Source: an uncultured Deinococcales bacterium (GTDB taxonomy: Bacteria; Deinococcota; Deinococci; Deinococcales; JAAFIG01). Taken from it: 11,131 bases of DNA. This document shows positions 1 to 11,131 of the stretch, piece by piece. The position numbers and the translations under genes were made by a program. The first letter of the stretch is position 1. Each line of letters starts with the position of its first letter. Under the pieces are notes generated by a model, which did not search any database, was not told where the DNA came from, and worked only from the letters and a program-made list of their open reading frames with translations. The stretch covers positions 1-11,131 of the forward strand of contig CAXTTL010000163.1 of assembly GCA_964247135.1 (NCBI GenBank), given 5' to 3'.

Positions 1-2873
1 TCGAGAATGTACGGGTAAGCGCCTTTCATTTCCCAAGCGATAAAGAACGGTGTCCAGTCAATAAAATCAATCAGCGTCTCGAGCGGTACGTTGCTCAATA
101 CGGTACGTCCAAGCTTTTTGGGGGTTGTTGGGGCGTACTCGAGCTTCGGCGCGTTTTTACGGGCATTCTGAAGCGTCAAAAGCCGCGTGGTTCTCTCCAA
201 TCGAGCTTCCCGAAGCGCGGTGTATTCGGCTCGAATTTGGTTGGCAAAAATTTCTTTCTCATTGCCTAACAATTTAGAAACTACGCCCACTGCTCGAGAC
301 GCATCGAGTACATGCACCACAGGACTCGAGTAGCCTGGTTCGACCTTGACGGCGGTGTGGGCTTTGCTGGTGGTCGCGCCACCAATCAACAATGGCAGTT
401 TCATGCCGCGACGTTCCATTTCCTTCGCCACAAATACCATTTCATCAAGACTTGGCGTTATCAAACCCGAAAGCCCAATGATGTCCACATTCTTTTCAAT
501 GGCTGTCTCGAGAATTCTTTCCGCGCTGACCATCACACCCAAGTCGATCACCTCGTAATTGTTGCAACCCAACACGACCCCGACGATGTTTTTGCCAATA
601 TCGTGAACGTCACCTTTGACGGTTGCCATCAAAATTCTGCCCGCGTGGGACTGCGAATTTCCACCCGCAAGTTTTGCCGCCTCGAGAAACGGCGTTAAGT
701 ACGCCACCGCTTTTTTCATGACTCGAGCACTTTTCACGACTTGCGGCAAGAACATTTTTCCTGCGCCAAACAAATCACCCACGATGTTCATGCCGCTCAT
801 CAGAGGACCTTCGATCACCTCGAGCGGTTGCGAAAATTGCGCTCGAGCCTCTTCAACATCCGCGTCAATAAATTCGGTGATGCCATGCACCAATGCGTGT
901 TCGAGGCGTTCGGTGACGCTCGAGTTTCGCCATGCAGCCTCTTCGGCTGGAGTCTTTTTGATGCCCTTGTAACGGTCAGCCAATGCCACCAAACGCTCTG
1001 TGGCATCCTCGCGGCGGTTCAAAATCACATCTTCAACATGCTCGAGCAACTCGGGTTCGATGTCGCTGTACACCGCCAACATTCCCGCATTGACGATGCC
1101 CATGTCCAGCCCAGCTTTAATGGCGTGGTACAAGAACACCGCGTGCATCGCTTCGCGGACGTGATTGTTGCCGCGAAACGAAAACGAAACATTGCTGATG
1201 CCACCCGAAACGAGCGCCCCAGGCAAATTCTGCTTGATCCAGCGTGTGCTTTCAATAAAATCTCGAGCGTAATCGTTATGCTCTTCGATGCCTGTGGCAA
1301 CCGTTAAAACGTTCGGGTCGAAAATAATATCTTGCGGATTCCAACCCAGTTCTTCAACCAGAATTTTATAAGCTCGAGAGCAAATCTCAATCCGACGCTC
1401 GAGCGAATCCGCTTGACCTGTTTCATCAAACGCCATGACCACCGCCGCCGCACCGTAACGCCGCACGGCTCGAGCCTGACGCCTGAATTCATCCTCACCA
1501 GCTTTGAGCGAAATCGAATTGACAATGGATTTCCCCTGCACGACCTTCAAACCAGCCTCGAGAACACTCCACTTGCTCGAGTCGATCATGAACGGCACTT
1601 TGGCAATTTCGGGTTCTGAACCTGCCAGATTCAAAAAATGCACCATCGCCGCTTCGGAATCGAGCATTCCCTCGTCCATGTTGACATCAACAACTTGCGC
1701 ACCGTTCTCGACTTGCTGCCGCGCTATTGCAATGCCAGCCTCGAAATCACCCGCTAAAATCGCCTTGCTAAATTTGGGCGAACCCGTGATGTTCGAGCGT
1801 TCACCCACGTTCACAAAATTCGTCTCGCTCGAGATTTTTAAAGGCTCGAGACCAGAAAAAGTTGGCAGCTCAGATCGTTTGACTGGCACTCGAGGTTTGA
1901 TATCTTTCACCGCCTCCGCAATCGCTTTGATGTGTACTGGCGTCGAACCACAGCAACCACCGACAATGTTCAGCAAGCCTTCCCTGGCGTACTCACCTAA
2001 GACTCGAGCCATAAATTCTGGCGTGTCATCGTACTCACCAAAGGCGTTCGGCAAACCCGCGTTCGGGTGGCAAGACACAAATTCTGGCGCGATGCTCGAG
2101 AGGGTACGCAAATACTCGCGGAACATTTCCGCACCAAGCGCACAATTTAAACCCACCGACAAGACGTTCGCATGAGCCGTGGAAACATAAAATGCTTCCG
2201 TCGTCTGCCCCGACAAGGTGCGCCCAGATTGATCCGTAATCGTGCCAGAAAGCATGATCGGCACTCGAGTCTCGAGTTTTTGGAAGACATTTTCAGCGGC
2301 GTACAATGCCGCCTTCGCGTTCAAGGTATCGAACACCGTTTCAATCAACAGTAAATCCACGCCACCCTCGAGCAACGCCGTGATTTCCTCCTCATAAGTC
2401 GCCACCAGATCATCAAACGTTACCGCCCGAAACGCCGCGTCCTCCACCTTCGGACTGATGCTCGCCGTGCGATTTGTCGGACCAATCGAACCCGCCACAA
2501 AACGCGGTTTGTCAGGCGCGAGAAGCGTAAATTCATCCGCCGCTTGCCGCGCCAGTTTTGCACCCTCGAGGTTGATTTGAAACGCGAAATCCTGCATTTC
2601 GTAATCCGCCTGCGCGATTCGCGTGGCGCTGAACGTGTTCGTGCTGATGATGTCCGCCCCCGCCGCCAGGTACTTTCGGGCAATCTCGAGCGGAATGTCA
2701 GGACGGGTGATGTTGAGCAGATCGTTGTTGCCAAACAGGTTAAATGGTGTTGGGAAACTGGGGTGACGGAAGTCTTTTTCGTGGAGGTTGTACGACTGGA
2801 TCATCGTACCCCACGCGCCATCCAGCACCAGGATTCGCTCGAGAAGAAGTTTTTCGATTTGAGATTTATTCAT
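1..2873 (-). CDS. metH: Cobalamin-dependent methionine synthase, 3' end outside window
   Basis: Missing from the ORF track because no stop lies in the window. Manual translation from ATG 2873 gives [26 protein letters not shown], Zn-ligand motifs GLNCALG (~2140) and GGCCG (~1950), the B12 motif [13 protein letters not shown] (~600), and [11 protein letters not shown] of the activation domain (~30-60). Confidence 0.98.
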
Positions 2874-3340
2874 TTGATTCTGCCTTCTGCTAAATCTGTT
2901 TTGTATTTTGGCTCAAGCTCCAAGTGTATTTTCCCTTGTCCGATTTTTTCAGTAATGATCAACTTGAACAATTCGTAGTTTATAATGTCAGAATTTGAGA
3001 TAAGAATCGAAGTATTATCTTCTAAATGGAATTGAATTGTAAAACTTTTCGATGATTCTGAGACATCAACAGACTTAACATTTGAATACTCTATTGTTTT
3101 TAGACTTTTTCCTGATTGGAATGTAAAATATTTATCATAAACGTATATTTTGGATAAAAAAACTTTATTGACAAAACTAAGCAAACTCCCAACTGCAAAT
3201 ACTACAGAAAGACCGATAAGTAAAGAATTATGTTGAATCAGCCCAAAGTACAATGCTCCTGTTGACCAAAATAGCAAGACAAATACGCCCCCAAGTGTTT
3301 TGTCAATTTTAGATTCAAAAAGACTCTTGTTTGCGCTCAT
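2870..3340 (-). CDS. Hypothetical membrane protein, 156 aa: two N-terminal TM helices plus possible bacterial PH-like domain
   Basis: Start at ATG 3340 ([11 protein letters not shown]), 4 nt after the Uma2 stop. Stop overlaps the metH start (ATGA). Two hydrophobic segments are followed by [10 protein letters not shown]...[10 protein letters not shown]. About 32% GC by hand count. The track start at 3436 overlaps Uma2 and is rejected. Confidence 0.75.
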
Positions 3341-3344
3341 ACAG

Positions 3345-3923
3345 TTACCACCACTCGAGCAGCACGTCAGGAAACTCGAGCGGCGCAACTTTCTCGCCAA
3401 CTTTGTAGGTGCGTTTGCTGGCGTATTCGGTGTCAAAAGGTTCGCGGTACACCTCGAGCAAATTCTTGTTCAGGTTTAAAATCCAAACTTCAGGAATGAT
3501 ATTTCGGGCGTAAGCCTCGAGTTTCACGCCAGAATCGCGTACCAGAGTTGTGTCCGAAACTTCAATCACAATCAAGGCATCTCGAGATTCCACATTGCGG
3601 TTGTCGTATTGTTCAGTTGGAAGTCGGAGCAATGCAATGTCTGGTTCGACAAAATCAGGTGGCGGGGAAAGTAAAATCATTGGAAGTTGCGCAGAGACAA
3701 TTGCAGCTTCGCCCAACATTTTCTCGAGCCTTTTTGAGAGCTTGCGTACTGCCTGTGCGTGAGGTGGTTTTTGCATGGCTTTGACCGTGATCTCCCCGTT
3801 TAAAAGTTCGACTCGAGTATCCCCAAATTGTCCCTCGTTACTCATCTTCTCGAATTGCTCGAGTGTGAACTTGTAAGGACCATCCACAATTGGCGTTGCG
3901 GGTTTTTCAGCGTAAGCAGTCAT
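3345..3923 (-). CDS. Uma2 (DUF820) family PD-(D/E)XK endonuclease-fold protein
   Basis: Typical Uma2 motifs: RVELLNGEI, PPH, EPDIALL, IEVSDTT..RD..KL..YAR..IPEVWILNL. Confidence 0.93.
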   Translation of the reverse strand: MTAYAEKPATPIVDGPYKFTLEQFEKMSNEGQFGDTRVELLNGEITVKAMQKPPHAQAVRKLSKRLEKMLGEAAIVSAQLPMILLSPPPDFVEPDIALLRLPTEQYDNRNVESRDALIVIEVSDTTLVRDSGVKLEAYARNIIPEVWILNLNKNLLEVYREPFDTEYASKRTYKVGEKVAPLEFPDVLLEWW

Positions 3924-3929
3924 AAGAAA

Positions 3930-3957
3930 AGTCTAGCCCTCCTTTGCAAACCGTCAA
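3930..3957 (-). promoter_or_regulatory. Putative internal promoter for uma2 (TTGACG-N16-TAGACT, 6 nt before ATG)
   Basis: Minus strand reads TTGACG gtttgcaaaggagggc TAGACT tttctt ATG. Confidence 0.5.
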
Positions 3958-4811
3958 GCTCGAGGCACACCAAGCACTTCTGAAACCACTTTAGGTCGTC
4001 CGAGCGGGTACAAATGCACTCCCGCCACGCCCAATTCCCGAAGCTCGAGGATGTTTCGCCGCGCCCATTCAATCCCTGCAATGCGCCCTCGAGCTTTCAA
4101 ATCATCCATGAGCGCATCTGGAATTTGCGTCCATTTGCCAACACGTTCTGCCATCTCGAGGCTGCGAACGGGCAGGATGCCGTACAAGACTGGAATTGGG
4201 GTTTTGCCACCAAAAGCGTTCTGGAATTTTTCAACGGTTTGCATGTCAAACACGGGTTGAGTTTGTGCAAAATGTGCGCCCGATTCAATTTTCTCGAGGA
4301 AACGGTTTTTTTCGCGCTCGAGGTCGTTGCTGCCTGGGTTGGCGGCAACGGCAATGTGTAAATCCGTTCCACCCTCGAGTTCGCGCCCTGTTAAGGCGTG
4401 ACCTGTGTTGAGGTTTTTGACGAGTTTCGCCAGCCCCACCGCATCAAGCTCGAACACGCCTTTGGCGGTTGGGTGGTCGCCGCGTTCGGGCGAGTCGCCG
4501 TTTAAGACCAGCACGTTTTTTAAGCCCAACGCATGTGCGCCCAAGAGTTCGGCTTGTAAACCCAGCACGTTTCGGTCACGGCACGTAAAATGTGCGATCA
4601 CCTCGAGATCAACTTGGGTTTGCACCAGATGCGCGGCAACCAGCGGTGTCATTCGTAAATTCGCTTGGGGACTGTCAGAAATGTTGACTGCATCCACCAA
4701 ATGCTTGACGGCTCGAGCTTCCGCCAGTGTCGCGCCTGGGTTGCTGCCGCGTGGTGGGTCGAGTTCGGCGGTGATGACGAATTGTTTGCCCAGTTTTTCT
4801 TTTAAAGTCAC
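3954..4811 (-). CDS. metF: Methylenetetrahydrofolate reductase (stand-alone, resembling the YitJ C-terminal domain)
   Basis: Motifs AELDPPRG, NISDSP, HFTCRDRN, GDSPERGDHP and FAQTQPVFD. Start placed at GTG 4811 behind AGGAAAGGGA because the track start at 4886 lies inside the riboswitch. Confidence 0.93.
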   Translation of the reverse strand: MTLKEKLGKQFVITAELDPPRGSNPGATLAEARAVKHLVDAVNISDSPQANLRMTPLVAAHLVQTQVDLEVIAHFTCRDRNVLGLQAELLGAHALGLKNVLVLNGDSPERGDHPTAKGVFELDAVGLAKLVKNLNTGHALTGRELEGGTDLHIAVAANPGSNDLEREKNRFLEKIESGAHFAQTQPVFDMQTVEKFQNAFGGKTPIPVLYGILPVRSLEMAERVGKWTQIPDALMDDLKARGRIAGIEWARRNILELRELGVAGVHLYPLGRPKVVSEVLGVPRA

Positions 4812-4843
4812 AAAAAATCCCTTTCCTAACGACATGGAAGGGA
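4812..4843 (-). terminator. Riboswitch terminator / SD-sequestering hairpin
   Basis: Minus strand: TCCCTTCC-atgtcgtta-GGAAAGGGA-TTTTTT, followed directly by the GTG start of metF. Confidence 0.75.
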
Positions 4844-4871
4844 GTCCCGAGAGACTTGGTTTGCACCCTTC

Positions 4872-4984
4872 CTTATCTTCCCGCAAATGATACTCGCGGC
4901 TGGATTTAGCACCTGGACATGACGGGGTAAGTCATCTGGTTGCTGCGGCTTCAAAGGGTCAGTCCCTCCACCGCTCTAGATAAG
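4872..4984 (-). ncRNA. SAM-I (S-box) riboswitch aptamer
   Basis: Minus strand: CTTATCtAGAGcGGTGGAGGGACTGACCCtttGAAGCCgcaGCAACC...GGTGCtAAaTCCagc...GAAGATAAG. P1 CTTATC/GATAAG pairs, and the element lies upstream of metF-metH. Confidence 0.97.
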
Positions 4985-5010
4985 CAACTCGAGAAACTCG
5001 AGCTTTAAGA

Positions 5011-5040
5011 AGTTTAAGATTATTTTATAAGCTCTGTCAA
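5011..5040 (-). promoter_or_regulatory. Sigma70-like promoter of the riboswitch/met operon
   Basis: TTGACA (5040-5035), 18-nt spacer, TAAACT (5016-5011). AT-rich tract upstream. Predicted start ~20 nt before P1. Confidence 0.65.
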
Positions 5041-5074
5041 ATATATTTATTGTGATTTGTAGTAAACTCAGCGC

Positions 5075-5305
5075 ATGACGCAACTTGTTGAGCAAGTTTT
5101 CTCCAAAGTTGAAACCTTACCAACAGCCGTGCAGAACGAATGGGCGGCTCGGGTTTTGGCTGAACTAGAAGATGAAACAACTTGGGATACATTGCTGGCT
5201 CGTCCAGAATCAAAATTGTTTCTTGAAGAATTGGTGTCTGAAGCTCGAGCGGAACGCCAAGTGGGTACACTTCGGGCGCTGAATCCTGATGAGATTGGTC
5301 AGTGA
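5075..5305 (+). CDS. Putative type II antitoxin
   Basis: 76 aa, acidic and helical (LP...QNEWAARVLAELEDE..WD). GTGA overlap with the downstream toxin. TAAACT lies 6 nt before the ATG. Confidence 0.8.
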   Translation: MTQLVEQVFSKVETLPTAVQNEWAARVLAELEDETTWDTLLARPESKLFLEELVSEARAERQVGTLRALNPDEIGQ

Positions 5306-5574
5306 ACTCAAAAACCACAAAACGATTTTGGAAATTACTTGAAGAATTGCCAAAAGAAGTTCAGTTGCAAGCTCGAGTTGCCTATCAGGTTTTTATTCAA
5401 AATCCGAATCATCCAAGTTTGCAGTTTAAAGCGTTGACAGATTTTTCTGAACCGCTTTACAGCGTGCGAATCGGTGCGCATTACCGCGCTTTGGGTTTAC
5501 TCGAGCATGACCAGATCACCTGGATTTGGATTGGAACGCATAGCCAATACAGCAAAGTTCTGGCTATGCGTTAA
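5302..5574 (+). CDS. RelE/ParE-superfamily toxin
   Basis: 90 aa with TTKRFWK..LP.EVQ, NPNHPSLQFK, YSVRIG.HYRALG and WIWIGTH..Y, a RelE/ParE-like pattern. Confidence 0.85.
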   Translation: MNSKTTKRFWKLLEELPKEVQLQARVAYQVFIQNPNHPSLQFKALTDFSEPLYSVRIGAHYRALGLLEHDQITWIWIGTHSQYSKVLAMR

Positions 5575-5585
5575 ACCTCGAGATT

Positions 5586-6512
5586 TTACGGTTGCAATTC
5601 GGTGGTGGTCTCGGTGGTCGAAGTGAACCCAAGTTTAACGGTCACTTTGACGCCAGCAAAAGTGGTCAAGTACGAAATCGTGCTGCTGCTGGTAGTTGTT
5701 CCGCTCGAGCGCTCGAGGCGACCATCGGGCAGGTAACTGTCTTCGCTGCTGGTTTTGGCGGGGTCAAAGTTGTAAGAAAAATCGGTTTTGCGTACTGTTT
5801 TGGCGTAAGAATAACTGCTCACAGTGGCGTTGGTGGTGAAATTGAACTGTTCTTTTGTGCCGCGTCCTTTAAACGTGCGACTCGAGTTCACCTTCACGCT
5901 CAAAGCCGATTTTTTCGCGTCGTAGCTGACGTTGCGGTTGTATTCGCTGCCCGAGCCGACCAGTCCAGCCTCGGTCAGGGGCAGCCCGTACAGTTGCTGA
6001 AATCGTGCCAGTTCGGCATTTTTAGCATTGATGCTTTGGTTCTTTAGGGCGTTTAATGCATCTGGAGTTAAGCCTTTGGTGTCGTAAGCAAAATCACTCA
6101 CGCTGACCTTGCCATCGGTTTGGTAGACGCGGTTAAACGACCATTTGGAGGTTTGCTTGCTGGGTTTTTGACCATTGTTGACGGTGGCTGTTGTGCTTGT
6201 AATGCTGACGGCAACAGTGCTCGAGCCATCTTTCACGCCCACCACTTTTTCGGTGATGACATTTCGGGTGGCGCTGACACTTGTTCCAAGCCCTTTTTTC
6301 AGGCTTTGCTCGAGTTTGGCAGGCACTTTCTTGCCCGCTTCGGCAACCAGTACAGGCTCGAGTGGTACTGTTTTGGTCGAGATTTTTTGCACGTAAGTCC
6401 AAGTCGTGTTGACTGGCACGTTGAAGCTCAGGGTGGTTTGGGCAAAAGCTTGGCTCAAGCCCAATACTGCACTGCTTGCAACAAGGCTGGTGAATAAATA
6501 GGATTTCTTCAT
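5586..6512 (-). CDS. Secreted Thr/Ser-rich beta-rich hypothetical protein (paralog of 6575..7486)
   Basis: Sec signal MKKSYLFTSLVASSAVLGLSQAFA begins at ATG 6512, 7 nt after TAAACT. The alternative start at 6578 has an ATGA-like overlap but would bury the signal peptide. Confidence 0.8.
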   Translation of the reverse strand: MKKSYLFTSLVASSAVLGLSQAFAQTTLSFNVPVNTTWTYVQKISTKTVPLEPVLVAEAGKKVPAKLEQSLKKGLGTSVSATRNVITEKVVGVKDGSSTVAVSITSTTATVNNGQKPSKQTSKWSFNRVYQTDGKVSVSDFAYDTKGLTPDALNALKNQSINAKNAELARFQQLYGLPLTEAGLVGSGSEYNRNVSYDAKKSALSVKVNSSRTFKGRGTKEQFNFTTNATVSSYSYAKTVRKTDFSYNFDPAKTSSEDSYLPDGRLERSSGTTTSSSTISYLTTFAGVKVTVKLGFTSTTETTTELQP

Positions 6513-6574
6513 CCCATACAGTTTAAACCGCTTTTGGTTAGAAGTTGCTGCATTTGCTGAATCAACGATGAGCG

Positions 6575-7486
6575 TCATAAAACCAGATCGCTGCTGGTCT
6601 CGAGTTCAAGTGTGGCAGTGCCCGAAATCACAATTTTTTGGTCTAGCAATTTGAGGCTGGTTTTAAATTTGTACGTGCCATTTGATTGAGATTTGGAATG
6701 CTCGAGTCTGCCGTCTGCCAGATAGCGTTCGGTGGAAGTCGTGGTTGATGCTGGGAATTCGTATTCGGAGACCATATCAGGCAAGGCTTGAAACTCAAGT
6801 TTTGCCGTGTAGGCGTCGGTGTTGGTTTGAATTTGAAACTCGAGTTGCCCTTGAGTACCAATGGTGGTCAGGGTTCTTGTGAGGTTCACCTGGGTTTGGA
6901 TTTGACCAAAACCAGAATGCTCGAGTTTGTAATTGGACAACACGGGTTGATTGACTTCATAAGTCTGTCCGTAGCCCGATGGTTTGGGGCTTGACAAACT
7001 GGTTTTTAAATCCTGCTCGAGGCTGTCAATCATCGCATCGGTCAAACTTGATGGGAGGCTCGAGCGGTCATAGGTTAAGGCTTGAAGCTGGACTTGACCG
7101 TTTGCCAAATACGCGGTGGTCGTCAAGAATTTGAGTGTTTGGGTTGGAATGCTTATCGTTCCACTTTTGGTTTCAACCGTGGCGCTATTGACCGCATCGA
7201 CCATTCGAGTGCCGTCGGTTAAAATCTCACGCACGGTTTCAGTCACACTGGCGCTGGTGGTCGAATTGAAGTCTTTAAAACCAGCCGTCAGCGCATCTTG
7301 AAAGACTTTCTTGACTGGTGTTCCGTCTTCGTTGCTGACTGTCACATCATTAAAACTGGTTTGGTTGACACTGAGCGTCTTGTATTGGCTCACTGTGCCG
7401 ACTGGAACAGCATACGTGAGGGTTTGGGCGGCGAAAGCCAAGCTCGAGAAGCCAACAAAAAACGCGGTGGTCAAGGTTCGTTTCAT
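6575..7486 (-). CDS. Secreted Thr/Ser-rich beta-rich hypothetical protein
   Basis: 303 aa ORF with signal peptide MKRTLTTAFFVGFSSLAFA. TACAAT lies 5 nt before the ATG. Confidence 0.85.
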   Translation of the reverse strand: MKRTLTTAFFVGFSSLAFAAQTLTYAVPVGTVSQYKTLSVNQTSFNDVTVSNEDGTPVKKVFQDALTAGFKDFNSTTSASVTETVREILTDGTRMVDAVNSATVETKSGTISIPTQTLKFLTTTAYLANGQVQLQALTYDRSSLPSSLTDAMIDSLEQDLKTSLSSPKPSGYGQTYEVNQPVLSNYKLEHSGFGQIQTQVNLTRTLTTIGTQGQLEFQIQTNTDAYTAKLEFQALPDMVSEYEFPASTTTSTERYLADGRLEHSKSQSNGTYKFKTSLKLLDQKIVISGTATLELETSSDLVL

Positions 7487-7521
7487 GCTTGATTGTACAA
7501 CTCGAGATTGAAAATCATTTC

Positions 7522-8301
7522 TTAACTCATCACCGTTCCGCCATCGATGTTTAAACCCTGCCCCGTGATGGCGGCGGCTTGGCTGGAAGCCAAAAAAACC
7601 ACCAAGCTTGCAACCTCTTCGGGTGTCACCATCCGCGCCATCGGCACATCTTTAACCAAACTGGCAACGGCTTCTTCCCTCGAGCGACCCGTTTTTTGCA
7701 TGATGTTTTGCACGGTTTGCTCGACCATTTCGGTGCTGACCCAACCAGGGCAGACGGCGTTGACGGTCACGCCCGTTTTGGCGTAATCGAGCGCCACCGA
7801 ACGCGTTAAACCCAGCAGCGCGTGTTTGCTGGCATTGTAGGCGGCGCTGTAACGTAAGCCGTGTTTGGCGGCGATGCTGGCGATGTTAATCACCCGTCCC
7901 CATTTTTTTTGTGCCATGCCCTCGAGCGTCAGTTGCATCAATCGCATGGCGGCATCAACATTGATTCTTTGGATTTTTGTCCACAACTCGAGGCTGGTTT
8001 CCGTAAATTTCACGCCTTGGGTGATGCCCGCATTGTTCACCAGAATGTCCACGCCACCAAATTCTGATGCTCGAGTCCCCAATTCGTTTAAGCTGGCATC
8101 GTCAAGCACGTCGCAAGGCACAGCCAAGGCGTTCACGCCAAAATTTTGAAGCTCGAGTTTTAAGTGCTCGAGTTCGGTGGTGCTTCGGGCGCTGACGATC
8201 ACATTCGCGCCAGTGCGTGCCAGTTCGAGCGCGATGGCGCGTCCGATGCCTCGAGATGCGCCAGTGACCAAAGCGGTCTTGCCAGTTAAATCGATTTTCA
8301 C
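7522..8301 (-). CDS. Classical SDR oxidoreductase (FabG / 3-hydroxybutyrate dehydrogenase-like)
   Basis: Motifs TGASRGIG, NNAG, catalytic YNASK, VNAVCPG and IDGG. GTG start overlaps the upstream stop (GTGA). Confidence 0.95.
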   Translation of the reverse strand: MKIDLTGKTALVTGASRGIGRAIALELARTGANVIVSARSTTELEHLKLELQNFGVNALAVPCDVLDDASLNELGTRASEFGGVDILVNNAGITQGVKFTETSLELWTKIQRINVDAAMRLMQLTLEGMAQKKWGRVINIASIAAKHGLRYSAAYNASKHALLGLTRSVALDYAKTGVTVNAVCPGWVSTEMVEQTVQNIMQKTGRSREEAVASLVKDVPMARMVTPEEVASLVVFLASSQAAAITGQGLNIDGGTVMS

Positions 8302-9281
8302 GGTTCGATTATCACTTTACCCGTGCTTGCCCTCGAGAACACGTGCTCGAAGGCTTTCCCTGCTTCCTCGAGTTTGAAAACCTGCCCGACAATTGGTTTG
8401 ACCGCGCCACTCGAGAGCAGTGGCGTCATGAAGCCAGTGGCTTGGATCATGACATCGGGTTCTTGCAACAGTGGTGTCAGCCAAACGCCAATCACGCTGA
8501 CGTTCTTTTTCATCAGCATGGTCGGGTTGAGGTTGGCAGGTTCGCGGCTGGCATTGCCGATCACCATCACGCGACCCAAAGCATTCATGAAGGTGGTGGC
8601 ACGGTCTTCAAAACCGCGCCCGCCCGTGACCGACAGGTAAATGTCCACACCGCGTTTGCCTGTAGCCTCGAGAATCAAATCGCGCAAGTTCTCCGCGCCA
8701 GACAAGAACACATGATCTGCGCCAAGGTTTTTGGCGATCTCGAGTTTTTCTGGTGTGCTGGCAATGGCAATCACGTTTAAGTTCATGGCTTTTGCCAGTT
8801 GAATGCTGGCAGTGCCGAGCGCTCCGGCGGCGGCTTCGACCAACACGGTTTCTCCGTCTTTGGCGTTGCCCAAGGTCTTTAGACTGAAATACGCGGTGTA
8901 ATAACTGACAGGAAGTGCTGCCGCTTCCCGAGCCGTCAGGTTTGCTGGAATGGGCAAGATTGCGGCAGCAGGCACAACGGCGTATTCGGCAAAACTGCCC
9001 GCGCCAAGTGCCGCGACCAACTGCCCAAGCTCGAGGTGCGTGACACCGTCGCCGAGTTTGTCCACAATGCCCGAAAATTCCATACCTGGCACAAACGGCG
9101 TGCGTGCTCGAGTGAGGTATTCGCCGCGCACGTTCAGAATGTCGGCAAAGTTCAATCCCACGCTTTGGACTTTGATGCGAACCCAGCCTGCTCGAGGTTC
9201 TGGGATGGGCATTTCGCTGACCGTCAGGACTTCTGGACCGCCAAGTTGCTGGACGTTGATGGCTTTCATGGTTTCAGACAT
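8298..9281 (-). CDS. NADPH:quinone oxidoreductase family (zeta-crystallin-like MDR)
   Basis: Motifs GGPEVL, GLNFADI, PFVPGMEFSG, AAAGALG and TGKVII. No Zn-binding cysteines. Confidence 0.93.
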   Translation of the reverse strand: MSETMKAINVQQLGGPEVLTVSEMPIPEPRAGWVRIKVQSVGLNFADILNVRGEYLTRARTPFVPGMEFSGIVDKLGDGVTHLELGQLVAALGAGSFAEYAVVPAAAILPIPANLTAREAAALPVSYYTAYFSLKTLGNAKDGETVLVEAAAGALGTASIQLAKAMNLNVIAIASTPEKLEIAKNLGADHVFLSGAENLRDLILEATGKRGVDIYLSVTGGRGFEDRATTFMNALGRVMVIGNASREPANLNPTMLMKKNVSVIGVWLTPLLQEPDVMIQATGFMTPLLSSGAVKPIVGQVFKLEEAGKAFEHVFSRASTGKVIIEP

Positions 9282-9355
9282 GAATTTAGTCTAACGTGAT
9301 TGAGCGATTACAAATTGTTCGATGATTCCAATTTTTGTGATGGTTAAGTTGAAAA

Positions 9356-9576
9356 CTACGGCGCATTTTCCCAGTCTTCTCGAGAAATTTCGGCTTCCAG
9401 TAAGATTTGAGCCAAAGTGGAATGCCAATGTCACCTTGATGCGGATTTGGAATGCGAAGTTTAAAGTGTCCCCGTTCCATGTACTCATGGCGTTTTCCTG
9501 CGAATGGTCCAACAAATCCCAATTGGCACAACCTGATGATGAGATCGCGTCTCGAGATGGGTTTTAAACCTGGCAT
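9356..9576 (-). pseudogene. hicA: HicA-family toxin, frameshifted
   Basis: MPGLKPISRRDLI..LGFVGPFAGKRHEYM...LRIPNPH. Adding one T at the TTT of 9414-9416 restores the family-like tail LLAQILLEAEISREDWENAP* (73 aa). As sequenced, the ORF reads on to 9286. Confidence 0.82.
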
Positions 9577-9827
9577 TATGCCATTTCCTCAGTGGCATGA
9601 AAATCGGGCAACTTCAGCCCAAGAAATTCTGGTGTCTCATGACCACGAGCCACGCCAAGGAGTACCCAATCCTCGAGCACGTCACGCAGTTCATCACGGC
9701 ATTCTTCAAGGGTTGCTGCATTTGCCCAAACTCCTGGTGCTTCGGGAATGTTGGCGTAAAAAGTATTGTCCTCGAGCAGCTTGTATTTGGCGAGTTTCAT
9801 TCCGGCGTTGAGGTAATTTTCAATCAT
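9576..9827 (-). CDS. hicB: HicB-family antitoxin (short, no evident DNA-binding domain)
   Basis: FYANIPEAPGVWANAATLEECRDELRDVLEDW. AGGAGG Shine-Dalgarno 6 nt before the ATG. TAATG overlap with hicA. Confidence 0.9.
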   Translation of the reverse strand: MIENYLNAGMKLAKYKLLEDNTFYANIPEAPGVWANAATLEECRDELRDVLEDWVLLGVARGHETPEFLGLKLPDFHATEEMA

Positions 9828-9922
9828 TTGTAACCTCCTGCGATGTCTTGATTTTAGCGCAAAAGCCCGTATATTTTATCAATCTTGAGTGTGTTTGTAA
9901 TGTTTTCGGCTAAGATGTTGCC

Positions 9923-10111
9923 ATGAAACAAAAGTTTGTCTACTGGCAAGATGATGGAATGTGGTTGGGGTATCTCGAGGAATATCCCGATTATTGGACC
10001 CAGGGAGTCACCGAATCAGAATTGCGTCAAAATCTGATTGATTTACACAAAGATTTGACTGGCGGAGAAATACCGAATGTTCGTCTTGTTGCCGAACTCG
10101 AGGTGGCATGA
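9923..10111 (+). CDS. hicB: HicB-family antitoxin (short)
   Basis: WLGYLEEYPDYWTQGVTESELRQNL. TAAGAT lies 6 nt before the ATG. ATGA overlap with a hicA remnant. Confidence 0.85.
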   Translation: MKQKFVYWQDDGMWLGYLEEYPDYWTQGVTESELRQNLIDLHKDLTGGEIPNVRLVAELEVA

Positions 10112-10292
10112 AGTCACGTGATCTTATCAAAGTGCTCGAGGATATGGGTTGCGAATTCATTCGTCATGGTGAGAATTACGATTGGTATCAAAATCCGCGT
10201 ACCAGAATTGCTCAACCTGTTCCAAGGTTTCTGAAGTGAATGAACGTCTAGCAAAGCACATCATCAAAATGCTCAGTGACGATGATGAATAA
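10108..10292 (+). pseudogene. hicA: HicA-family toxin, frameshifted
   Basis: MKSRDLIKVLEDMGCEFIRHGENYDWYQNPRTRIAQPVPR, then FLK* at 10239. The family-like tail SEVNERLAKHIIKMLSDDDE* continues in another frame (net 1 nt missing near 10228). Confidence 0.85.
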
Positions 10293-10375
10293 GCTTTAGC
10301 GACATTTTTGTTTTCGCGTGATTTGACGGCGCAAGCTCGAAATTATTTTGAGACTTGACTAAGCTTTTTGACGCA

Positions 10376-10404
10376 TTGACTTTTAAGCATCTTGCATATA
10401 TGCT
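10376..10404 (+). promoter_or_regulatory. Sigma70-like promoter of nrtR
   Basis: TTGACT-N17-TATGCT, ending 14 nt before ATG 10419. Confidence 0.7.
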
Positions 10405-10418
10405 ACTTGCAGATAACT

Positions 10419-11131
10419 ATGAAAAACCTCAAACCCCAAACCGAACAAGAATTCCTCGAGACTTACGATCCCAACATCTTCCCCCACCCCAGCCTCAGCG
10501 TGGACGTTGCCATGCTGACCGTGCGGCAACGATCTCTCGAGGTGCTGGTCATCAAACGCAGCGAACACCCCTTCAAAGACCGTTACACCCTGCCAGGTGG
10601 CTTTGTGCAAATGGATGAAACCCTGGATGCCGCCGCCGCCAGACTTTTAAAAGCCAAAACAGGTTTGGATAACGTGTTTCTCGAGCAACTGTACACCTTT
10701 GGCAGCCTGAACCGTGACCCCAGAACCCGGGTGATTTCAGTGGCGTATTACGCGCTTGTGAACACCGAAAGGCTCGAGGCTCTTGAAAACACCGACACCA
10801 TTCGGTTGGCAAGGGTTGAAGTCCCGTGGCTTGGCGAAGTCGGCGGCAAGGTGCAAATCAGGCTCGAGAAACAAAATTACGACCTGGCGTTCGATCACGG
10901 TGAAATCCTCGGCACAGCCGTCAAACGCATTCGCGGCAAACTCGATTACGCCCCCATTGGGTTTCAACTGCTGCCCGAACGCTTCACCCTGCGCCAACTG
11001 CAAGACATTCACGAAACCATCCTGGCTCGAGGGGTGAACAAAGACTCGTTCCGCCGTCGGATGCTTGCCAGCGAACAACTCCAAGCCACGGGTGCGCTCG
11101 AGAGTGGTGTGGATTATCGCCCCGCCGAGTT
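10419..11131 (+). CDS. nrtR: NrtR-family regulator (Nudix-like domain plus winged HTH), 3' end outside window
   Basis: Manual translation: EFLETYDPNIFPHPSLSVDV, LPGGFV, LEQLYTFG..NRDPRTRVISVAYYALV, LAFDHGEIL, LLPERFTLRQLQ and NKDSFRRRM. Confidence 0.92.
   Translation, partial: MKNLKPQTEQEFLETYDPNIFPHPSLSVDVAMLTVRQRSLEVLVIKRSEHPFKDRYTLPGGFVQMDETLDAAAARLLKAKTGLDNVFLEQLYTFGSLNRDPRTRVISVAYYALVNTERLEALENTDTIRLARVEVPWLGEVGGKVQIRLEKQNYDLAFDHGEILGTAVKRIRGKLDYAPIGFQLLPERFTLRQLQDIHETILARGVNKDSFRRRMLASEQLQATGALESGVDYRPAE

Follow-up and report, generated by a model that had tools for sequence, protein, structure and literature searches.

A highly iterated CTCGAG palindrome held at the DNA level in an uncultured family of Deinococcales

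The palindromic hexamer CTCGAG is hyper-abundant in an uncultured family of Deinococcales. It came to attention in the stretch of DNA analysed here (the window, 11,131 nucleotides in length: positions 1 to 11,131 of contig CAXTTL010000163.1 in assembly GCA_964247135.1), for which a reading made from the letters alone (the sequence-only reading) proposed a highly iterated palindrome (HIP) outside the cyanobacteria. This proposal holds: the excess is genome-wide, is found in non-coding DNA too and is common to relatives. We are highly confident that this is a real motif, present across the lineage and maintained at the level of the DNA, and the comparisons below show a bias that acts on the DNA, is specific for the exact hexamer, runs through the lineage and is still acting.

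The window contains exactly 94 copies of CTCGAG (8.4/kb), with the outermost sites at 78-83 and 11097-11102. Dinucleotide-preserving shuffles of the window have a mean of 1.92 copies (standard deviation 1.39, maximum 7), and none of 200 shuffles reached 94. The sequence-only reading had counted about 94 copies over the same span and had put the excess at roughly 30- to 35-fold; the count is exact, and in the genome CTCGAG stands at about 35 times expectation. Open reading frames (ORFs), nine in number, hold 83 of the 94 sites, and 11 lie outside ORFs (4988, 4997, 5244, 5372, 5500, 5577, 7501, 9379, 9974, 10097 and 10135); among the latter are all four sites (4988, 4997, 5577 and 7501) that had been named as non-coding.

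The source assembly (G000) is a metagenome-assembled genome (MAG) of 5,091,702 bases in 386 contigs, with a guanine plus cytosine (GC) content of 52.7% and an estimated completeness of 84%. CTCGAG occurs in it 33,925 times (6.66/kb, about one per 150 bases), where a first-order Markov model predicts 963 copies and a second-order model 2,351, and the enrichment is genome-wide. It is the commonest hexamer, at 67,850 occurrences on both strands, while the most frequent hexamer with no part in common with it has 11,958. All 297 contigs of at least 5 kb carry the site, at 2.56 to 10.5/kb (median 6.77), which rules out an effect limited to the contig of the window. About 4% of the DNA in the genome consists of CTCGAG sites, and 43% of all CTC triplets fall inside one. 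Other palindromes are avoided to an extreme degree: GAGCTC is present in 0 copies, GGGCCC in 1, CGGCCG in 3, AGGCCT in 4, CGTACG in 5, GGATCC in 7 and CCGCGG in 11, over 15 palindromic hexamers stand at less than 5% of their expected number, and GGCC has 380 copies (observed/expected 0.02). The excess of one palindrome is all the more striking because the same genome avoids palindromes so strongly. GAGCTC is also rare in relatives: of the 18 other genomes of the family, 15 have at most 25 copies. Such stability is unusual for an avoidance driven by restriction, and there may be a link with the CTCGAG bias.

Codon, dicodon and amino-acid usage were rejected as the cause. Genes were taken as the longest non-overlapping ORFs of at least 100 amino acids (4,452 ORFs covering 85% of the genome), and the DNA called intergenic therefore holds some short genes. 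The density of CTCGAG is 6.50/kb in coding and 7.57/kb in intergenic DNA, which bears out the earlier argument that protein composition cannot be the explanation. Genes contain 28,110 sites, compared with 3,951 ± 31 when synonymous codons are shuffled within genes (a 7-fold excess) and 1,673 ± 37 when the order of codons is shuffled (17-fold), so that the enrichment survives both controls. The three reading frames described from the window are all real genome-wide: CTC GAG accounts for 17,264 sites, xxC TCG AGx for 6,484 and xCT CGA Gxx for 4,362. Leu-Glu is the most over-represented dipeptide (22,460 versus 9,423 expected, 2.4-fold), and 76.9% of these pairs are spelled CTCGAG, while elsewhere CTC encodes 15% of Leu residues and GAG encodes 32.5% of Glu residues. 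In a codon alignment of the methionine synthase MetH, sites often stand where Deinococcus has other residues (ATGGAG, CTGAAG, CGCGCC). The enrichment prevails over the choice of codons and even over the sequence of amino acids.

All 19 genomes of the family (the source genome and 18 others, from five genera) are enriched, with 4.3-6.8 CTCGAG/kb, and a single-contig genome of 5.1 Mb (G011) shows the same enrichment. A relative Deinococcales MAG, in which MetH is 93% identical, has 141 sites in 22.9 kb. The MetH codon alignment contains 12-31 sites in genomes of the family, 4 in the f2 genome G019 and 0 in four Deinococcus orthologues. Since each of the 18 relatives was assembled separately and all 18 are enriched, an assembly, library or synthetic artefact is ruled out. 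A by-product of composition, of codon or dipeptide usage, or of faulty assembly, binning or synthesis might still be suspected from the 61% of coding sites that sit in the Leu-Glu frame and from GC-rich phage contigs, which reach 3-7 sites/kb from composition alone. Among the matches listed in a scan of viral contigs, which is not informative on phages of a Deinococcales host, the 25 densest of 80 stretches counted were 58-73% GC, and most also hold GAGCTC. Such a by-product is at odds with the higher intergenic density, with the 7-fold and 17-fold excesses over shuffled codons, with the complete lack of the reversed word GAGCTC in the source genome, with a trait common to 19 separate assemblies and with the conservation of sites at aligned positions between species (below). 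This explanation is refuted by the controls run, and we give it practically no credence.

Conservation was measured by aligning 397 kb of a second genome of the same genus (G005) with the source genome, which gave 313,735 columns at 85.7% identity. In this alignment 1,802 sites were common to both, 475 were found in the source genome only and 309 in G005 only. The 1,802 intact sites of 2,277 (79.1%) place CTCGAG first among 2,910 hexamers with at least 30 occurrences (mean 43.9%, 99th percentile 68%). Intergenic sites are intact in 192 of 243 cases (79.0%), against 45.8% for all intergenic hexamers. At the two synonymous third positions of CTC GAG, identity is 90.4% and 92.1%, compared with 57.7% (CTC) and 67.0% (GAG) in other contexts, and synonymous positions in the site diverge about four times less than controls. 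Conservation evidence of the same kind has been taken as selection on the cyanobacterial palindrome HIP1 (PMC5861425).

Turnover was followed in a comparison of three genomes (the source genome, G005 and G004) over 68,581 shared columns, at pairwise identities of 86.2, 85.9 and 85.7%, so that the three are about equidistant. Sites numbered 325 in all three genomes, 159 in two and 94 in one. In a 28 kb subset, 14% of sites (69/492) were lost per branch, whereas 33% of other hexamers changed, and 6 of 121 ancestors one mismatch away became CTCGAG, against a baseline of about 2.9% per specific transition and 0.66% per specific transversion. After a site has arisen, its loss is several times slower than change at nearby neutral positions, and one-mismatch variants convert to CTCGAG above baseline, with only 6 events. 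The site is about 27 times as abundant as its average one-mismatch variant; from this ratio and the rates of gain and loss, which comprise few events, a rough estimate of the scaled fixation bias is about 2 to 3.5. A 30-fold excess is attainable at equilibrium with a bias of this size.

CTCGAG was also counted across the phylum in a tally of 364 genomes (including the unpublished G325, on which no claim rests). Genomes of the presumed genus Deinococcus have 0.01-0.36 CTCGAG/kb, and those of presumed Thermus about 0.7-1.6/kb (most near 0.9), which is roughly equal to the reversed word in most genomes. In another family, G149 and G150 are rich in the site (8.6 and 7.0/kb) while the congeneric G151 is poor (0.3/kb), and G032 has 3.6/kb. 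Ratios of CTCGAG to a control word, CTGGAG, are rough, as the control word is possibly itself avoided in some genomes: they are 45 in the source genome, 12-56 in the rest of its family, 25 and 29 in G149 and G150, 1.1 in G151, 13 in G032, about 0.05-0.3 in presumed Deinococcus, about 0.4-1.5 (mostly 0.6-0.9) in presumed Thermus, 1.3-7.5 in presumed Meiothermus and relatives, and 5-60 in several genera of the largest MAG-rich family. Enrichment therefore varies by degrees over the phylum, with at least two lineages at its extreme. The Uma2 family, a putative restriction-endonuclease fold that is expanded in cyanobacteria, was rejected as a correlate of CTCGAG density. The source genome has 25 first-look candidates and members of its family have 5-42, but copy number does not follow density across the phylum: the CTCGAG-rich G032 has none, and presumed Thermus genomes have many and are unenriched. 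One Uma2-family gene is embedded in the methionine operon of the window.

CTCGAG resembles HIP1 (GCGATCGC) in being a short, GC-rich and hyper-abundant palindrome that is found in coding and non-coding DNA and in all frames, that beats control motifs in conservation between related genomes and that codon or amino-acid usage does not explain (for HIP1, PMC5861425). It differs in being six bases long rather than eight, and in its density of about 6.7/kb, where HIP1 is given as about one per 1000 nucleotides (PMC4390886). Its host belongs to the Deinococcota, and CGATCG is nearly absent from the source genome (47 copies). One-mismatch variants of CTCGAG are not conserved, unlike the variant HIP1*, which is described as conserved (PMC5861425). 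There is also a likeness to alternate HIPs such as GGGATCCC of hot-spring Synechococcus, in which a lineage-specific palindrome replaces HIP1 (PMC13756078, PMC4390886); unlike CTCGAG, alternate HIPs are described within cyanobacteria only and each is said to pair with a methylase of its own specificity.

The anatomy of the site is simple. The zero-gap arrangement CTC-GAG is the only one enriched, and spaced half-sites were rejected as the unit, as CTC and GAG are found at background level when 1-12 bases lie between them. The possibility that the true unit is a palindrome of 8 bases was also rejected: GCTCGAGC occurs 4,224 times versus about 5,050 expected from independent flanks by our own arithmetic, and all four symmetric 8-mers fall below that expectation. 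Around the hexamer there is a weak symmetric flank preference, GA.G-CTCGAG-C.TC. It persists at 5,077 intergenic sites, where positions -4 to -1 favour G, A, A and G in turn, with the mirror image downstream (A at -3 in 42% of sites versus 26% background; G at -1 in 35%).

Sites are also spread more evenly than control words. Spacings of 7-20 bases are at 0.33-0.55 of expectation, with the deficit lying below about 18 bases, and a spacing of 6 bases, which would make GAGCTC, is never seen. Spacings of 40-160 bases are in 1.2-1.27-fold excess and those of 320-640 are at 0.78 (coefficient of variation 0.96). The periodicity suggested for inspection by the sequence-only reading is confined to a period of 3, and no other period was found up to 1 kb. 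The dispersion index per kb is 1.12, compared with 1.22-1.82 for 34 control words of similar density. The profile across genes is flat, apart from a dip to 5/kb over the first 20 bases. In the 20 bases that follow the stop codon the density peaks at 12/kb (a 1.8-fold excess), and convergent spacers show a mild excess (8.9/kb), as is also seen for uptake sequences.

As an alternative, the sequence-only reading had named a site-specific chromosome-binding protein, and a DNA-binding protein of this kind fits the exclusion of close neighbours and the flank preferences. Such a pattern could be produced if CTCGAG were the binding site of an abundant nucleoid or chromosome-architecture protein and were selected for even coverage of the chromosome. 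The mutual exclusion of sites below about 18 bases is footprint-like, the symmetric flank preference includes intergenic DNA, sites are more even than the 34 control words, the density profile across genes is flat, and about 34,000 sites per genome is within the copy-number range of abundant nucleoid proteins. We nevertheless consider this explanation unlikely: we know of no nucleoid protein that makes an exact hexamer 35 times too common or that distorts the proteome, the lack of conservation of one-mismatch sites is unusual for an affinity-based site, period 3 is the only short-range period, and our analysis produced no candidate protein.

The sequence-only reading had attributed the excess to an orphan CTCGAG methyltransferase acting with methyl-directed repair. 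In the form considered for HIP1, a CTCGAG-specific orphan methyltransferase would mark the site, and methyl-directed or very-short-patch-like repair would restore existing sites and create new ones. CTCGAG is a classic type II target, with the same six bases as the target of XhoI/PaeR7I, and the genome has been shaped by restriction-modification, as seen in the avoided palindromes above. Moreover, at least 12 DNA methylase candidates are encoded in the source genome: two C5 enzymes, five genes or gene fragments of the N4/N6 beta class, two type IIL restriction-modification enzymes of the MmeI family (844 and 929 amino acids), a protein of 1,500 amino acids of the Eco57I type, an HsdM-like protein of 798 amino acids and one methylase of the D12 class. 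Their number and their patchy occurrence in relatives point to heavy restriction-modification traffic. Cyanobacterial HIPs accompany cognate methylases, those for HIP1 being GATC and CGATCG methylases (PMC4390886).

A conserved cognate methylase of this kind was not found for CTCGAG. The methylase scans used six Pfam families, in an assembly that is 84% complete and in MAGs that are incomplete. Eight candidates were searched singly in the 18 other genomes of the family, and close relatives (at least 62% identity) were found in only 3 to 6 of the 18. The other four are a low-GC beta-class gene without a site, a fragment at a contig end (covered by a paralogue query only) and two large gamma-class proteins (covered by family scans only); gamma-class methylases were found in all five of the good genomes scanned, which represent five genera. 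The C5 methylase search had no match in G008 or G015, and PF01555 (N4/N6 beta-class) had none in the single-contig genome G011. When the methylases of six genomes, which represent five genera, were compared all against all, no orthologous group spanned the five genera. Neither Vsr nor the TaqI_C methylase domain was found in the scan of the source genome, and the XhoI-family nuclease PF04555 had no match in that 84% complete assembly even at an E value of 0.1.

The substitution pattern likewise speaks against methylation-linked repair. The deamination products of the site are not depleted (observed/expected 1.16 for CTTGAG/CTCAAG and 1.33 for TTCGAG/CTCGAA). Where the partner of a site is not conserved, the three classes of transition are seen about equally often (85, 71 and 60), which gives no sign of methyl-cytosine decay. 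To our knowledge, textbooks offer a single route by which repair can enrich a palindrome, namely a bias that turns the deamination product of a methylase target back into that target. Dcm/Vsr very-short-patch repair enriches CCWGG in E. coli, far more weakly than 35-fold; for CTCGAG, unlike Dcm/Vsr, there is no Vsr and no family-wide C5 methylase among the genes found, and no depletion of deamination products. Resident restriction targets are normally avoided, whereas CTCGAG is enriched 35-fold in a genome in which neither PF04555 nor TaqI_C was found. The methyltransferase explanation is not borne out by these results, and we give it only a small chance of being correct.

The mechanism that we favour, tentatively, is that a conserved protein reads CTCGAG and that the bias arises through preferential exchange, recombination or repair of site-bearing DNA. 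CTCGAG would then be a mark on resident DNA, set about once per 150 bases in this family and held by a weak, pervasive and sequence-specific fixation bias on the DNA itself. A lineage-conserved protein would read the site as a symmetric dimer, which would explain both the symmetric flank preference and the deficit of spacings below about 18 bases. The restriction of the enrichment to the zero-gap arrangement is a further sign of a reading protein, and this protein would be distinct from the strain-variable methylases of restriction-modification systems. The likeliest process would be one in which site-bearing DNA is favoured in exchange, recombination or repair between relatives. The result would be molecular drive, as is accepted for DNA uptake sequences (DUS) and has recently been proposed for cyanobacterial HIP1.

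Uptake sequences are thought to accumulate by drive through biased uptake and recombination. CTCGAG resembles the DUS of Neisseriaceae and the uptake signal sequences (USS) of Pasteurellaceae in being an over-represented word across a family that lies within genes, shapes peptides and is evenly spaced; it has an even spread, a mild peak after stop codons and an effect on the proteome. DUS and USS differ from it in that they are 9-12 bases long and oriented, and often form inverted pairs in terminators, while CTCGAG is a six-base palindrome with weak flanks and an excess after stop codons of only 1.8-fold. The favoured mechanism also has a parallel in recent proposals that HIP1 promotes transformation and correlates with type IV secretion (10.1101/2024.09.10.611283 and PMC13756078).

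Several points weigh against preferential exchange or repair guided by a reading protein. The central actor is one that we infer, and no candidate recognising protein was found. A six-base word has low specificity, and known uptake sequences are 9-12 bases long, non-palindromic and present at about one per kb. Presumed Thermus and presumed Deinococcus are unenriched, and the well-studied competent members of the phylum belong to these two genera. Two observations argue against graded affinity: ancestral hexamers one mismatch from the site were unchanged in 75 of 121 cases (62%), compared with 66.7% of all non-site hexamers, and one-mismatch variants are not enriched (observed/expected 0.45-1.96, where the expectations are inflated by the dinucleotides of CTCGAG itself). 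A methylase may also belong to a family that was not scanned, or may be missing from incomplete MAGs.

The turnover of sites adds two further difficulties. Sites missing from one genome (159) outnumber private sites (94), where a simple equilibrium predicts the reverse: the ratio of private to two-genome sites is 0.59, compared with about 1.4 in our own stationary two-state calculation and 2.78 for all other hexamers. Private and lacking sites number 49 and 32 in the source genome, 21 and 58 in G005, and 24 and 69 in G004; the bias may be fading in two lineages, which would then be losing sites on balance, or favoured positions may often gain sites in parallel. In addition, 53 of the 94 private sites are at least 2 bases from the nearest orthologue, compared with 21,622 of 81,963 control words (26%; p about 9e-11), and 23 are at least 3 bases away, compared with 6% in controls. 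This is a difficulty because such differences are not predicted by stepwise point substitution with a weak bias. Losses show a weaker multi-base excess (56/159 versus 24%). The flanks of multi-base events are as divergent as those of control events of the same size (0.159 versus 0.161; 0.204 versus 0.204), and imported divergent tracts are therefore no obvious explanation. The multi-base differences can be read in two ways, as short-patch conversion of several bases at once or, following a first hit, as a rapid return to the preferred codons and residues. Examples of private sites in the window are those at 1262, 1398, 7679 and 8410, with the orthologues CCCTGG at 1262 and CGAGAG/CGAGAT at 7679. 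A 6-base insertion was rejected as the origin of sites, as most MetH sites align without gaps to other codons.

The multi-base differences raise the idea that sites are written in single events, by a dedicated or repair-linked activity that swaps a short patch for CTCGAG and changes several bases together. Besides the excess of private sites two and three bases away, the unremarkable divergence of the event flanks fits this idea, as does the observation that the other two genomes sometimes agree on a word 2-3 bases away (CCCTGG, CGAGAG, CTGCGC). We judge it very unlikely, given that a tree of three genomes leaves the direction of change along one branch ambiguous, that losses are also multi-base and could be explained by a release of constraint after the first hit, that there is no known enzyme or template, and that the sample is just 68.6 kb. 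A wider version, which we hold to be quite unlikely, is a methylation-independent genome-marking system of the Deinococcota: a conserved enzyme would write CTCGAG by short-patch multi-base conversion, the mark would serve as a self label for DNA exchange or repair, and the graded and on/off patterns across the phylum would reflect gain and loss of this activity.

With regard to genomic context, the density of CTCGAG climbs with local GC content, from 1.1/kb in 2-kb windows below 35% GC to 7-8/kb in those above 55% GC. The longest site-free stretches are mostly AT-rich, the lowest being 27-40% GC, and the AT-rich islands listed in Table 1 are probably recent, foreign acquisitions. Four ORFs scanned in site-free stretches matched no Pfam family above the cut-off, with a weak AAA_16 match at best for those on C13 and C70. 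Contig C75 is probably a conjugative element; its density is half that of the chromosome, yet far above baseline. The low densities in AT-rich DNA and on this contig count in favour of a mark on resident DNA. Transfer RNA genes (66 predicted by ARAGORN, some perhaps false, in 5.1 kb) contain 10 CTCGAG, or 1.95/kb, about 10 times the Markov baseline in spite of the constraint on such genes, and include those at C157:3282-3357 and C8:37756-37850.

The genes of the window are ordinary, encoding MetH, methylenetetrahydrofolate reductase (MTHFR), a Uma2-family protein, two dehydrogenases, a NUDIX/NrtR regulator and ORFs without a Pfam family (Table 1). Within MetH, 14 sites are in the frame CTC GAG, 9 in xCT CGA Gxx and 5 in xxC TCG AGx. 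An S-adenosylmethionine (SAM) riboswitch lies upstream of the gene row MTHFR, Uma2 and MetH, and two CTCGAG are within 12 bases of its 5' end; short matches of 85-91% between window positions 4938-4984 and many loci in several families are due to this riboswitch. A site-free gap of 516 bases, from 2838 to 3354, falls in the lower-GC part of the window (42% GC for 3001-4000). The stretch between MetH and the Uma2-family gene (2874-3344) is covered only by an ORF without a Pfam family.

Table 1. Location of features in the window and elsewhere in the source genome (G000; contigs by number)
Feature	Location	Strand	CTCGAG sites	Basis
CTCGAG site set	window 78..11102	.	94	count versus shuffles
MetH, B12-dependent methionine synthase, extends beyond window	window 3..2873	-	28	Pfam domains
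Uma2-family gene	window 3345..3923	-	8 (13.8/kb)	Pfam
Methylenetetrahydrofolate reductase gene	window 3954..4886	-	9	Pfam
SAM riboswitch aptamer, mostly within 4887..5585	window 4870-4986	-	0	RF00162 (86.4 bits)
Non-coding stretch	window 4887..5585	.	6 (4988, 4997, 5244, 5372, 5500, 5577)	
Two ORFs without Pfam family (330 and 303 amino acids)	window 5586..7486	-	6 and 7	
Intergenic site	window 7487..7521	.	at 7501	
Short-chain dehydrogenase and zinc alcohol dehydrogenase genes	window 7522..9281	-	7 and 8	Pfam
Stretch with ORF119 (9452-9811, +)	window 9282..10391	.	3 in ORF119; four non-ORF (9379, 9974, 10097, 10135)	
NUDIX/NrtR-type regulator gene, extends beyond window	window 10392..11129	+	7	Pfam
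MmeI-family type IIL enzyme, 844 amino acids	C21:25623-28157			
MmeI-family type IIL enzyme, 929 amino acids	C192:4855-7644			
AT-rich islands (27-30% GC, 1.7-2.6 kb)	C13:11893-14536, C70:14168-16418, C20:7986-9673		0	
Type IV secretion contig (VirD4/TraG-type coupling protein, VirB4/TraC-like ATPase)	C75:1-19420		3.45/kb	

In the full-text literature, with supplementary tables, subscription journals and REBASE beyond the scope of the search, we found no description of CTCGAG enrichment in Deinococcota or other bacteria, nor of a HIP outside cyanobacteria. The main text of Elhai 2015 (PMC4390886) makes no mention of CTCGAG or Deinococcus. On the practical side, these MAGs have in CTCGAG a strong signature for binning, and digestion with XhoI would cut such DNA about every 150 bases.

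HIP1 has been without an agreed function for three decades and has been treated as a cyanobacterial peculiarity. An independent and denser case in a second phylum would make the phenomenon general, and would separate it from the GATC and CGATCG methylases of cyanobacteria. If the genome-marking reading were true, up to 4% of the chromosome would be a single word. The bias on DNA reaches into proteins, with about 13,000 Leu-Glu pairs above expectation in the source genome. Finally, the rich G149 and G150 and the poor G151 within one genus, together with the gradient over 364 genomes, amount to a natural experiment that could reveal the responsible gene.

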